Positions 56,462-63,983 are shown, counted from the first letter of the whole stretch. The stretch is 63,983 bases of DNA, filler included, from Basidiobolus ranarum (GCA_040143965.1; 3 parts of 3 records of this genome joined end to end with filler, not necessarily neighbours in it); one strand, 5' to 3'. The notes: generated by a model not told the origin, from the letters alone. Numbers and translations are program-made.

Positions 56462-57637
56462 GGACTAAAGCACGTCAAGTGGCAGTCAAGGCTGCATAGC
56501 CAATGGATGATTTGTAAGAGGGAAGTGCGGCCATTCAACGTTTCATTACGTCTTATTGTACCTCCCATTTCCAAAATTGGAGTCTGTTTTATTGGGCGGA
56601 GCAGGGGAGCGGAGCAGAGATTCATTCCAAATATCCTAATCCCAATGGCTGTGGTTTGGAACTTTGAGCATATGCGTCAAATTACAGATGGATCAGCTGG
56701 TTTGATGTTTCCAGTGATTGTGGAATCGGAACTCTGGCAATGCTAGCACAAGGCCTCAGCTAACAACCATCAAACTTGGCGGGCTGGCTTCGGCTGGTGC
56801 TAGTGAATTCTCAGCTGCCTGACCCTTGATCATACAACATTGTTCGTTACACAGATGTGAAACCCCAACAAACTACCAACTACAAGTCCTTGTAAAAACG
56901 GCAGTCTCAAGTTAGTAGAGATAAACGCATTGATTGTAAAATGGATTTAGCCACACTCCCCAGCCAATCACGGGCCATTGTTCGGCTATGGCATTCATAG
57001 ATTGCCAAAGTTGCATTTCATTCGCAACGACGGGGACCCATGGGGATTGGCTAACACATGTTGATCCCTTTTAGATTAGCATATTGATTTAATTGTTTTC
57101 CGAAGGAGTCGCTGGTTTGACAGTGACTATTATTTTGTGAAGCGACATTCAAGTGAGTAGGCACGGATGACCTCATCCTATGGTAAAAGTGTCATTACTA
57201 TTTGACATTAAAATCTACTTTATTCTACTTGCCTCGAAGCTCTTTTAATTAACTCTTGCTTAGCTTATTCATTTTGGCCTCGTTTTTTAAATCCTCGCAG
57301 TCTCTTCTTTTTCCAAGGTTTCCTTTGCACTCTGTCTCTTTCCCAATACTACTTGCTAGTTGCATCTTTTCAGCAGTGTACGGGCCTTCAAAGGCAAACC
57401 ATCAGCTGATATTATTGGCGTTTATAAGGTTACTCTTAAAAGCATATATAGCATAACGGAAGACCTTGTTTAGAGAATCCTCGATACATAACCTCTCAAC
57501 ATATTTTGCCTGTTAGCGTATCTAACAAAGACAATAACCTAGAACTTTATTACCTGACCCCCTAGTATCTATATAGCCCATACAGAGCCAAAAACCTCGA
57601 CTCATAACCTAGATATTTTCTTGTGAGAAGGTACAAC

Positions 57638-60074
57638 ATGGCTCAAAGTACCAGAGGGCACAGTCAAGTAGCAGCTACTGAATGCTCCCCTCAAAACGAA
57701 AACTCTGCTCTGACTGAGTCAATGACAAAACTTACTATATCAACACAACTTTCGAGAACTTCATCTCCTAACGTTTCAGTGTATACTGAAAACAAGTATG
57801 AAGGCAATCATTTCGGCGAACAATTAGAATTCCCTGGTAAGTTACATTTTTTTAGAGCCACGAGTTATATCTTGGGCTCCTTAAGATGTTCCTATATGGT
57901 ATTAACCGTAATTCCAGGAACACCAACCACAGATTCAGACCCTGGTTTAGCCTCACCCAAGTCTCTAGTTTCTGCTAGTAGTAATAGTACTGCTCATAGT
58001 ATAAAACGTGCTTCCCCGCAAGGTTGCATATTTGTTGCAAGGTTGGTTCCATTCATCACATTGACCTTTTCAAAGTATATTCAATTCATAAATTTTATTT
58101 CAATTAGTCTTGCTGCATCCAAAACTGACGAGGAACTACATGAAAGTGTTACAAAACATTTCAGCAAATATGGAAAATTGCTGAATGTGAAGGTCCTTAA
58201 AGATTGGAAGCAAAGGCCATACTCCTTTGTTCAGTTTGAGGTGGATACATTCTTATTTGAGTAGCTTCCTGTAGCTGTGGTCTAATCCATTTCATTCCAT
58301 TTCCAAACAGAATGTTCACGATGCGAAGCGAGCACTGACCGAGGCTCATCATACAATTTTAGACGGCCGGCATATCCGCGTGGAACAAGCTAGAGTAAAT
58401 AGAACACTATTCATAGCAAAAATCAGTCGATCTCTGAATGAAGAGGTATGCATCCAATCAAGGTTTCATGTTGGGCCACTTTCATTAATGATCTTTCTAG
58501 GAATTGAGAAATATTCTTGAGGAGTATGGCCCCTTGGAGGATTTGACGATCTTGCAGAATTATCAAACTGGCCGCAGTAAGGGCTGTGGCTTTGTCAAGT
58601 TCTGTTATCGAGATGATGCAATTAGGGCTTATTCGGTAATTTTCATCAGTAATTAATATCGTTGAATGCCCAAGAGTTCCCTTACTGCGCTCCAATAAGC
58701 CAATCCCCTTCCACACCAAGTTTATTAATGATTCAATACATGTAGGAATTACGGGTTAATTCCAAATGGGTAGTCGAATGGGCACCAAATTTGGAACGAG
58801 GGTCTGGTCAGGTTGATCGTACTAGTGTATTTATTGGACAGTTGAATCAGAAACTAGTCACGCAAAGTTTACTGGAAGAGAAGTTTGGCAAATATGGGAA
58901 AATAGAACTCCTGAATTTGGTCAACCGCAATGCTAATATGCCAGGTACTGCATCTCAATTATGCATTTGTTAAAGAATAACTGACTCAACTGATATCGTC
59001 GATACCAGCTTTCGCATTCATCAAATATTCCAATGAAGATGCTGCTGGGAAAGCCATCGAGAATGAGGTATAGTGCCCTCGTTGGTCTCACATCAAGTGG
59101 GTACGGCTCTAATTGAATGTTACATATTGTAGAATGGGTCTCGTTGGCTAGAAACCACCATCCGTGTCCAGTACCGTGAATCCAACGAAGGGCGTGTACA
59201 TAAGCAGCTGAGACCCAATAATTATTTCACCAAATTATATCCTGGCTCTTCTATTCGCGGTGCCGTGCCTTTTAGCCCTCCCCACTATGAACATCGCCCA
59301 AGTGTCGCAACGGTACATTGTTTAAGTAGTCCATTGCTCTTCATTCTTAGTATTAACCCAATTTTTGTGGCAGAGTACCGAGGCGACAGGGTATCCTTAT
59401 TACATATATCTAGGAAATGGTAAGATATTCGTTTTGCATTCTCAAACTCAACCTTATTCACAAAACCTATAATGATAGATTATTCACAAAATACACCACT
59501 TTACCAAGTAGTTGATGGTAACGCCTATCCTCAAATGCACATGTATGAGTCAGGGCAATCACCGCCGGGAACTAATCCTCCAATATTTCCAAATGTTTCT
59601 TCGAATGGCGAACAAGTGCCTAACCCATACATGTTTGGTGATCCTAATCAGCCAAATTATCCGTCTTATGCTTCATTTAGCAATCCTAACAATCAGCCTA
59701 GTACCCGAAGTCCACCACCTACAGCACCTGCGGCCTCTGGTGGATCTATGCAACAATCAATGACTTCTAATATTCCACCGTCTTCGTGGGTCCCATATCC
59801 TGGTACGTACTACGCTTTTCCAATGAGTGCAGTACCCACTCCTGGCCCTTACCCTGTTGCGTATATGCCGATTCCAATATCTGACCCGCAGTATCAGCAG
59901 CACTATCTTCCTAAAGGGCATATTGCAGGTCAGGCTCCCCAAGCCCAGAATGGCGGTTCGCAACAGGCAGGGTCTTCAGAGTATTCACACGGTACACATC
60001 AGATGTATCACCCATACAATGGTGACTTCAATGGCGGAGGTGACCGAAAGGAAAGACTTAAACATGCTGAATAA
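57638..60074 (+). CDS. RIM4: RIM4-like meiotic triple-RRM RNA-binding protein with low-complexity C-terminus, multi-exon
   Basis: RRM1 GCIFVASLAASKTDEELHESVTKHFSKYGKLLNVKVLKDWKQRPYSFVQF..DAKRAL..LDGRHIRVEQARVNRTLF; RRM2 GFVKFCYRDDAIRAY..WVVEWA; RRM3 SVFIGQL..AFAFIKY..AIENENG..IRVQYRE, all Rim4-family hallmarks as recalled; P/Q/N/Y/S-rich tail. Confidence 0.85.
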
Positions 60075-60628
60075 GTTTAATCTATTTGTGATATTTGCTA
60101 TATTTGCAGCTTTTCTAATATGATATTTCACTTGCCTTTTATGTGTTATTAGTGTACCCCTGATAAATCTCCCCTCTATAGCCCCTTTACTAAATGTTCA
60201 TTTCTACTATATGATTTCTTTTAATACTGTCGTGAAAATACTAAGTATAACCCTGTAATAGTTCGTATTATTTTCTTCTTCACTTCTACAACTCGAAATG
60301 TATCTTTACATACAAATTATCTGAACTCCCTATCTGATTTATACGTTTCTATGGCAAAACATGCTATAAAGGTTGTATTTCTTTCGTCGCTGTATCACAT
60401 AACCTGCTTGCACACACCAGAGCAAATTTGATGTATCTGTTCTATAACCAAACACGTGAACTCATTATCTTTTTATTTTGTCTCGTAATTGCGGGGAGTG
60501 ATGTACAAATATGCCTATTTCGCCATATAACAAAAATATAAGCAAACTTGAATGTGCATACAGACAGTTCTCAGTTATATAAATCCTGCCTATTGTCAAA
60601 TGAACGGTTTCTCCGTGATCGTAACGTA

Positions 60629-62603
60629 ATGCATTCTCCAACACCTATTCAAGAGAGGTTGCGAGTAATTCTGGTAAATTACATAACTCTTCTTTAACTT
60701 TATTAAATATCAAGATAATCACAAGTTAACGATAGATGAAATTTCATTATTAACAAGTTTCTATCATTTCAGGCATTGATTGTATTAAAAAGTAAACCGG
60801 AAAATTTGAATATTTATGGTAAAAATCAAGGATATTATCCATAATTTTAAAATTTCATCATTAATTGGGATGATTTTATTATTATTAGAATATCTTACTT
60901 TAGCTGGTTGGTCCAGTAGCGTTAGTTTAAGTAAGGAAAGTATTCACTCGGAGTTGTCAGAGACTCAAGTAAAAGGAAAACGTAAACTTGAAGAAGACTC
61001 CTTAAATTTTTGGAAAAGAAGATGCTACCAATTGAGCGCTACTGTATTAGATCTTAAACAAAATCTATGCTTAAAAGATTTAGGTAATGTGTAACTAAAG
61101 TAGCATCGCTTAACATTTACAATTTAGTAAAGAACACTTCCTTTATGGTAACAGAGATAGCAAGTACTATAACAAAAAAACAAAGGAAAGGGAAATCGAC
61201 TGATCCGAATTTGGAGGCTCTAGAAAGAAGTAAAGCCTTCATAAAGACTGCCCAAGTTTGGAAACGCCACTTTGATGTTTTTAAGAGGTATGCATGGTTA
61301 TAAGCAAGTAGTAGTTCACAATTCAAATTATTGGTTTAATGTGTAGAGCTCAAGATTCAATCAAAGAGCCCGATGATATTTCCAATTTAAATGGTTCATT
61401 CGAAACCAGTATGGCTAGACTGCAGCAGATACATAAATTTATGATCAAGATGGAATCTTCATCTCGTAAGTAATAAGTTGACTTCATATTAACTAAAAAT
61501 AAAGGCTAATCAAACCATATAGAGGATATATTACCCGAAATTAAGCTAAATGCAGAAGAAACGATCTTCGAAAGTTTACGAAGAATGATAAATTATTTAA
61601 CAGACTGCCAATTGGTATTCTTTCGAAAACTCAGCGCCAAAAAATGCTCAGAAAAAAGGTTCACTATGAAGGTTTGCGAAGAGTCATTCGAGAAATTTTG
61701 TGGCTTATTTGAGAGAACTTTAAGTAATATTCAGATCCTGTGACAATACGAACCATTAATGCTCTACTTACTCATTTATAAATAGCTTTAGTGGATTCTC
61801 CGGTATTCAGTCAAGAAAAATCAGAACAATTGATAGAATATTATAGCCGTGCGTTAATTCAAATATTAAAATGGCTACCAAAGTTAGGGGAAATATATTT
61901 TACATATTTATTCGAAAAAGACAACGATAACTGGTAAGAATTTGCACAAATGTTTGAAAGTAGCATGATAAGCTATAAAAGTCATAGTAAGAACACTGTA
62001 GATATACGAGAAAAGCTCAGTGAGGCGATCATTTATTTATGCCGTAGTGGGCATTCCACGATAAGCAATGCTATTTCATTGGCAGCGATAGTTGAATGCA
62101 AGAGGTTAATTACTGCAAAATCAACACCCGATCAAAGGTCATCAATCCAATGCTCGGCTCCTGTAGCAAGTAATGATGTAGTTGGCAGCGGCTTACAGTC
62201 TGCAATGAAATACGATAATGCATACTATTTGATGTGGATATTTGATGAAACCACTATACCCTTAGTGAGCCTGGGAGATAATATCTCTCAACATAGAAAG
62301 TCAACTCAAGATAGATTCTTCCGAGGTATTTAAGCAATCTTTTGAATAACCACGTCTTCCACAGTGAAAGACAACAGTGTACTGAATGATTTGGATTTAG
62401 ATGAGAGTAGTAACTTATTTGTTGATATTTTGAATGAAACTATGACTACGGCTGCTGATGACTTCTATGGCGAAGGTTTCTGCATATACACATGGGAAAT
62501 TAGCCTACGACTGATGAATTCTGATACTTGGTTACATAACAGAGAATCCAAGATAGCAAATATGAATCAAAAGCCAAACGACAACTCTCCTTCATTTTTC
62601 TAA
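60629..62603 (+). CDS. MEI4: MEI4/Rec24/PRD2-family meiotic double-strand-break protein; 9 exons (about 60629-60673, 60773-60818, 60889-61083, 61128-61287, 61347-61465, 61523-61723, 61786-61933, 61988-62325, 62365-62603)
   Basis: All eight GT-AG introns preserve frame. Product contains RVILALIVLKSKPENLNIYEYL, FWKRRCYQLSATVLDLKQNL, KYDNAYYLMWIFDE and ILNETMTTAADDFYGEGFCIYTWEISLRL, matching in order the N- and C-terminal MEI4 signature motifs as I recall them from vertebrate MEI4. Confidence 0.8.
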
Positions 62604-62932: not shown

Positions 62933-63028
62933 TGCTCCAGGCGGGGATCGAACCCGCGGCCTTCGCGTGACTCAAGTATAGAGAGTTACTCTATAAGCAC
63001 GACGCATTAACCACTTTGCTACTGGAGC
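62933..63028 (-). tRNA. tRNA-Ile (TAT) with 23-nt intron (62969-62991)
   Basis: GCTCCAG TAGCAAAGTGGTTAATGCG TCGTG CT TAT A [intron] A CGCGA AGGC CGCGG GTTCGATCCCCGC CTGGAGC A: acceptor stem pairs, intron at canonical 37/38, 73 nt mature, T4 run downstream. Confidence 0.96.
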
Positions 63029-63547
63029 TTCTTGGTGGGAACAAGTCATGGATTGAAATCATACCCATCCAGATCGGCGGAATCCAAATATTCAACTAAA
63101 TAACTTGTAGACATTTCAAGGATCGAAGTATACTGGCCATAATAAGCTATGTTGATCTAATATGCACACTAAAAAGTAAATCATTCAAGAATTCGATTTT
63201 TCTTTTTAAAGTAGCAACTTTAAGAGGAGAAAAATAGTAGAAGTAAGGGAAGGATTCGTCTCATGTGCATAGGCTATTGAGCATACTATACTTATGAAGA
63301 GGAGGGAAGGAGTTAGAGAAGATTGTTTGGTTTGAAGTTTTGCTCAATTGAGGGTAAAAGCACCATGTGTATAAATAATGACAATTCTTTAGCAAAGGAA
63401 AAAGGATGTGCACTACGCTAAAAACATGCTCTGGTGACTAAGATAGGCTTTTGACGTTGTCAAATAACGTGTCTATTCTATATCTCCCTAGAGAAGGTGA
63501 CTTATTAGATATTGTATATTCCAGCGACAACCTGAGGTAAATCAAAA

Positions 63548-63618
63548 TGCATACTCGGGGAATCGAACCCCGGTCTACCGCGTGGCAGGCGGTAATTATA
63601 CCACTAAACCAAGTATGC
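63548..63618 (-). tRNA. tRNA-Gly (GCC)
   Basis: GCATACT TGGTTTAGTGGTATAATT ACCGC CT GCC AC GCGGT AGAC CGGGG TTCGATT CCCCG AGTATGC A: full cloverleaf, 71 nt, TTTT immediately downstream. Confidence 0.97.
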
Positions 63619-63983
63619 AATTACGAAAGTTTCCCGCCTACATAATTTGTTGAGTCAATCAAGAAATAACCGACCAATTTTTCTTACCCCTTAATTCAAG
63701 AATGTGTGAATTTAGTTAGTTGCTCTACGTATGTATGATATATATAACCACCGTATTTATCAGTTTTGAAGCACTGGGAATAATGATACCATCCAAATCA
63801 ATTCTCAATGTCAAGCTGACATTTAAATTCTGGGATTGATAGGGAAACTTCATATATTAGGGTTAGCTTGATGGTTTGGTTGCCAGCGCTGAAAGGGAGT
63901 ATAGTGCGGTGAGTCCGTGGTTCAAACCTCCTACGGACGTTTGAGAAACGCAAAAAACACGGCAATAAAACTGCGGGGTTATG

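Follow-up and report, generated by a model that had tools for sequence, protein, structure and literature searches.

A probable MEI4 orthologue in Basidiobolus ranarum, with a predicted N-terminus that is absent from the public gene models

Introduction

MEI4 is known to assist the breakage of DNA in meiosis. It is represented by Mei4 in yeast, Rec24 in fission yeast and PRD2 in plants, and is a protein that one expects to find in a sexual fungus. It diverges fast, and its orthologues are often missed or mis-modelled; the Mei4 motifs were reportedly defined by Kumar et al. in 2010.

In Kumar and de Massy 2010 (PMC3966222), MEI4 is described as carrying six helical SSMs, placed at the N- and C-terminus, with 8% identity between the mouse and yeast proteins, and SSM1 is given as required for REC114 binding. 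Liu et al. 2023 (PMC10393192) describe conserved hydrophobic residues at every one to two positions of Mei4 helix 1, a pattern that exists because two REC114 chains embrace this helix, and an SSM2 that opens with a nearly invariant Trp. Daccache et al. 2023 (PMC10393190) add an all-helical, HEAT-like body, which lies behind flexible N-terminal helices. S. pombe Rec24, A. thaliana PRD2, Z. mays MPS1 and C. elegans DSB-3 are all accepted orthologues despite very low identity, and divergent members of this kind have been recognised by short motifs and by AlphaFold models in which they form a 2:1 trimer with their REC114 orthologue (PMC10393190; PMC10393192).

Here we describe a locus at positions 60629-62603 (+) of a 63,983-nt stretch of DNA, filler included (hereafter the window, meaning the whole stretch that was analysed). 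A first-pass annotation of the window had suggested that this locus encodes MEI4 in an early-diverging fungus; the DNA is indeed from such a fungus, Basidiobolus ranarum, of the phylum Basidiobolomycota. We propose that the gene is probably a new member of the MEI4 family, and that its public annotation should probably be corrected at the 5′ end.

Results and Discussion

Comparison with described MEI4 proteins

The predicted Basidiobolus protein resembles mouse and human MEI4 and S. cerevisiae Mei4 in having a very hydrophobic, short helix at its extreme N-terminus followed by a Trp-initiated helix (that is, SSM1-like and SSM2-like elements), in an all-helical remainder (here from a low-confidence AF2 model), in a size of the same order, and in the confinement of conserved motifs to the N- and C-terminal parts. 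It differs from them in that about 48 residues, rich in Ser, Glu and Lys, lie between its KSKP sequence and W72, and in that the last of the four motifs proposed by the first-pass annotation can be fitted only with a gap. At about 484 aa it is also longer than the mouse and yeast proteins, which we take to be of about 390-410 aa. Compared with the MEI4 family as defined by PF13971, the contiguous pieces of the Basidiobolus protein give no HMM-level match.

With Rec24, PRD2, MPS1 and DSB-3 it would share the manner of its recognition, via short motifs and a 2:1 trimer; the assignment of those four is supported by genetics or biochemistry, whereas the Basidiobolus protein is a candidate identified from sequence.

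A nine-exon gene at 60629-62603

Nine exons, joined at GT..AG sites, produce a single open frame on the plus strand, of 488 aa in our first model and of 484 aa when the acceptors of the public isoforms (see below) are used. The frame starts at ATG 60629, the earliest in-frame ATG downstream of a stop, and closes with the TAA at 62601-62603. In a six-frame ORF list the locus appears only as fragments of 51-131 aa, scattered over the three plus frames, and the first-pass description of a nine-exon gene that is visible in the ORF track only as fragments was confirmed at these coordinates. Each of the eight introns of the 484-aa model runs from GTA to AG, with sizes of 44-99 nt.

Exon 1 (60629-60673, +; 45 nt, residues 1-15) begins the hydrophobic N-terminal, SSM1-like helix and ends at the donor GTAAAT. 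Exon 2 (60773-60818, +; 46 nt, residues 16-30) is entered through the acceptor TTCAG, holds the core of motif 1 (ALIVLKSKP...) and is left through the donor GTAAAA; a division of the first motif between exons of 45 and 46 nt, as had been claimed, was thus upheld. In exon 3 (60889-61083, +; 195 nt, residues 31-95) motif 1 is completed (EY), and a linker and motif 2 follow. Exon 4 (61128-61287, +) has two in-frame acceptor options, at 61128 or 61155. It is followed by exon 5 (61347-61465, +), exon 6 (61523-61723, +), exon 7 (61786-61933, +) and exon 8 (61988-62325, +), the last of which carries motif 3 (YDNAYYLMW) at 62211-62237. Exon 9 (62401-62603, +), which contains a weak motif 4 region at 62430-62495, also has two in-frame acceptors, 62365 or 62401; the former, which would leave an intron 8 of 39 nt, was dropped because both public isoforms use 62401.

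Codon usage was scored as log-odds after training on 15 long ORFs from other parts of the window, which is a weak test for exons 1 and 2, given how short they are. The in-frame score was above zero for nine of nine exons (0.02-0.28 per codon), and the off-frame score was below zero in 17 of 18 cases. The introns are AT-richer than the exons, with GC fractions of 0.19-0.36 versus 0.24-0.42. The sequence that we take as intron 2 is itself open in one frame, with a codon score of 0.02; as translation could start at ATG 60816 and read through this intron, an open frame alone does not force the inclusion of exons 1 and 2.

On these features of the sequence we conclude that the locus is a real nine-exon gene, in which the junctions of exons 1 to 4 are predicted.

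The N-terminus and the four motifs

Motif 1 occupies residues 11-32, across exons 1 and 2, with the codon for its final E being made by the splice between exons 2 and 3. On direct reading, residues 11-20 are nearly all L, V, I or A, and are followed by KSKP; the SSM1 feature, an N-terminal helix with large hydrophobic residues spaced one to two positions apart, is therefore seen at residues 11-20, the motif string itself being that of the first-pass annotation. The exon 3 linker is rich in Ser, Glu and Lys, and contains the sequence KGKRK. W72 then opens a 19-residue amphipathic stretch that extends to L90 (61011-61067 in the window); this is motif 2, and the SSM2 feature of a helix opening with a near-invariant Trp is found in it. 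Between KSKP and W72 lie 48 residues, a spacing that would imply an insertion of about 25 residues relative to vertebrate MEI4, as we presume the latter to be.

The first-pass annotation had claimed that four motifs of vertebrate MEI4 align with the protein in order. We scored each motif string, without gaps and with BLOSUM62, against the spliced protein, the reference strings being those of the first-pass annotation, set down after the sequence had been seen; as controls we used 20,000 composition-preserving shuffles and all six-frame ORFs that are 40 aa or longer in positions 1-60400 of the window. The best positions in the 488-aa model, residues 15, 72, 371 and 434, fall in the N-to-C order that had been stated. 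Motif 1 (residue 15) scored 34 out of 45, a value that 0 of 20,000 shuffles and 0 of 37,432 background positions attained; motif 2 (residue 72) scored 35 out of 52, which 4 of 20,000 shuffles attained, as did 0 of 31,825 positions in the background. Motifs 3 and 4 concern the C-terminal signature motifs (SSM3-6). For motif 3 (residue 371) the counts were 0/20,000 and 0/38,055. Motif 4 (residue 434), by comparison, was equalled in 1954 of 20,000 shuffles and 12 of 31,825 background positions. Motifs 1-3 are thus far above chance with respect to these reference strings and the ungapped motif 4 is not; the claim stands for the order and for the first three motifs, and falls for the fourth, which fits only if a gap is allowed.

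The mouse MEI4 sequence, in the form that we assume for it, agrees with all four strings. A literature search for the strings themselves did not find them.

Searches for homologues, and whether the likeness to MEI4 is coincidental

Exon 3 gave a lead to the family that does not depend on those reference motifs. When exon 3 alone (64 aa) was compared by ESM Atlas with Pfam-named clusters only, the top matches were to PF13971 (Mei4): the first-ranked cluster scored 0.83, with 174 of 256 features shared and PF13971 on 72% of its 96 members, and the second scored 0.76, with PF13971 on 10% of its 70 members. The top family-bearing matches agreed 10 out of 10 on one family or clan. Among the nearest clusters with known taxa most were from Streptophyta (plants), so that the vertebrate-like character claimed by the first-pass annotation draws no support from them. 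By the thresholds of this method a score under 0.9 counts as a lead only, 0.8 is attained by one third of shuffled proteins, and the recognition value of exon 3 was 2037, under the mark of 2300. We nevertheless give the match weight at 0.83, because the family returned was the one that had been proposed beforehand; in our judgement, rather than by computation, a random sequence would return a family named in advance very rarely.

Searches with longer or other pieces of the protein returned nothing of the kind. PF13971 was not found at E<=10 in any of seven exon peptides, nor in the public isoforms P0001 and P0003 (all of these being contiguous pieces, either single exons or isoforms that begin at residue 102 or later), and the sole Pfam row obtained was an irrelevant one for YhfH (E=0.35). 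A phmmer search with P0001 against 1.84 billion representatives recovered only P0001 itself and P0002; the latter, a 1766-aa repeat protein, was rejected as a homologue, its 15 short matching stretches being spurious. ESM Atlas gave no usable match with P0001. A PDB sequence search returned 0 matches for P0001 and 0 for the exon-2 ORF, and for exon 3 returned four weak, irrelevant ones (including ubiquitin E2 Q1 and prefoldin; E 0.42-5.4). A metagenome scan with P0003 for a related Basidiobolus locus produced 28 pattern matches, of which 0 were confirmed. A single-sequence AF2 model of residues 149-484 was all-alpha, with 12 helices, at low confidence (mean pLDDT 42.8, pTM 0.36).

These results bear on the better-surviving of the alternatives, that the locus encodes a lineage-specific, orphan helical protein whose function lies apart from meiotic breaks, and whose likeness to MEI4 is a coincidence that comes down to a handful of short helices, amphipathic or hydrophobic. 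Such a protein would account for the failure to find a counterpart of the C-terminal 338 aa in 1.84 billion representatives, or a Pfam family in any piece searched; motif 4 is not significant, the reference motifs are putative, and the Atlas score of 0.83 is within the range reached by one third of shuffled proteins. Against this, ESM Atlas returned, from among all named clusters, the very family that had been named beforehand, with ten of the ten best family-bearing matches in agreement, and three motifs lie in order at the correct ends of the protein, each of them reached by no more than 4 of 20,000 shuffles. Moreover the MEI4 family is detectable only via short motifs, with the low mouse-yeast identity given in PMC3966222, so that failed whole-sequence searches are to be expected even for a true member. 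Taking both sides together, we consider an orphan protein unlikely.

We therefore favour the reading that this locus is the Basidiobolus ranarum MEI4 orthologue, an all-helical protein of about 484 aa, and judge it probable on the present sequence evidence. The proposal of MEI4 identity in the first-pass annotation gains from the lead of exon 3 to PF13971 and from motifs 1-3, and loses the contribution of motif 4, which is at chance level.

The public annotation and the extent of the mRNA

The locus had been described as cryptic and unannotated, which holds for one part of it. In public data for Basidiobolus ranarum it already carries an annotation, as the hypothetical protein K7432_007074, whose two isoforms P0001 (338 aa) and P0003 (383 aa) cover exons 4-9; what is unannotated is exons 1-3, with motifs 1 and 2. 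P0003 falls in the 90% cluster of P0001, under the same locus tag. It equals residues 102-484 of our model, and its start, ATG 61145, is an internal, in-frame Met of exon 4. P0001 equals residues 149-484 plus two preceding residues, read from ATG 61341 in intron 4, so that its start Met lies 6 nt upstream of the exon 5 acceptor. All junctions between exons 4 and 9 are borne out by the isoforms: the exon 4/5 junction of P0003 is that of the spliced model, the junctions of exon 5 are the same in P0001 and P0003, those of exons 6 and 7 are confirmed by the public models, and the peptide of exon 8 is 100% identical to P0001.

What the public models lack is residues 1-101, which take in the whole of exons 1-3 plus the opening six codons of exon 4. 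A word-index search with exon 3 gave zero candidates among public proteins of 51-165 aa, and among those of 113-2000 aa it gave 27 word-sharing candidates with none at E<=10; exons 1-3 were not found in any public protein that was recovered.

It could thus be argued that the public annotation is correct, that the mRNA begins after exons 1-3 and encodes a protein of 338-383 aa, and that the Mei4-like exons upstream are a chance frame or a decaying remnant. Both public isoforms do start downstream (at ATG 61145 and ATG 61341), exon 3 occurs in no public protein that was found, and, with exons 1 and 2 being so small (45 and 46 nt), chance could have produced an open frame flanked by GT/AG sites. 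Yet exons 1-3 are open and phase-compatible, are separated by GTA..AG introns and score for codon usage much as exons 4-9 do; exon 3 is the very piece that draws Mei4 clusters, and motif 1, which spans exons 1 and 2, was matched by 0 of 20,000 shuffles. The Met of P0003 is internal to a longer frame and that of P0001 falls within intron 4, just short of exon 5; on balance we regard an mRNA that lacks exons 1-3 as very unlikely. An internal Met and an ATG within an intron are, we infer, starts of the sort that an ORF caller would choose on transcripts that were partly spliced, intron-retaining or incomplete at the 5′ end. A gene on the opposite strand was rejected because the longest minus-strand ORFs across the locus are of no more than 77 aa.

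Retaining the nine-exon gene with exons 1-3 as the preferred model, one could ask whether its 5′ end is a point of control. An upstream ORF of 25 codons (60552-60629, +) ends in a TAA whose last base is also the first of the main ATG (TAATG), and could dampen translation, provided that the 5′ UTR extends that far. Together, the start sites of the public isoforms and this TAATG upstream ORF would fit a scheme in which full-length MEI4 is made only after the removal of introns 1-4, with gating at the level of splicing or translation confining the REC114-binding N-terminus to meiosis. We consider such a scheme unlikely.

A proposed role for the Basidiobolus protein

By analogy with the described systems, we propose that the N-terminal helix of the Basidiobolus protein would insert into a ring of C-terminal helices contributed by two REC114 molecules, to give a 2:1 trimer of the kind described in PMC10393192 and PMC10393190. 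The C-terminal helical domain would, by homology, be HEAT-like, as is the four-repeat domain of the MEI4 family. The complex may then, with Mer2/IHO1, bind DNA and condense on the axes of meiotic chromosomes, where it would license SPO11 for the formation of meiotic double-strand breaks, in this fungus presumably in the zygospore.

The Basidiobolus gene leaves the understanding of the REC114-MEI4-Mer2 complex itself unchanged; its interest lies in the family and in its detection. Because the public model omits residues 1-101, which are the predicted REC114-binding part, automated surveys would score Basidiobolus as being without MEI4. Once corrected, the model would bring a sequence from the Basidiobolomycota into a sparse family, would aid profile searches in other early-diverging fungi and could be a stepping stone to their MEI4 proteins, and would support the REC114-MEI4-Mer2 module as ancestral in fungi; the bridge between animal and ascomycete families suggested by the first-pass annotation is a conjecture. 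Our literature search found no work linking Basidiobolus with Mei4 (or with MEI4 and REC114), nor any in which Rec114, Mei4 and Mer2 appear together with Rhizopus, Batrachochytrium or Rhizophagus.

Surroundings of the locus

On the same strand, the upstream neighbour includes an ORF at 57608-58261 (+) that matches RRM_1 weakly (E=0.0016; 18.7 bits, against a Pfam cutoff of 20.7 bits); its last ORF, at 59424-60071 (+), is rich in Pro, Gln and Asn, and this gene region extends to 60074. The 176 N bases that the window holds are all outside the MEI4-like locus.

Downstream, at 63860-63940 (+), a T-arm-like GGTTCAAACC motif was noticed on reading, in a region for which neither Rfam nor ARAGORN made a tRNA call. 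A tRNA-Gly(GCC) lies at 63547-63619 (-), about 0.9 kb downstream of the MEI4-like gene. A tRNA-Ile(UAU) with a 23-nt intron, at 62933-63028 (-), was missed by the default tRNA scan and is detected by Rfam (58.8 bits) and by ARAGORN in its intron mode.
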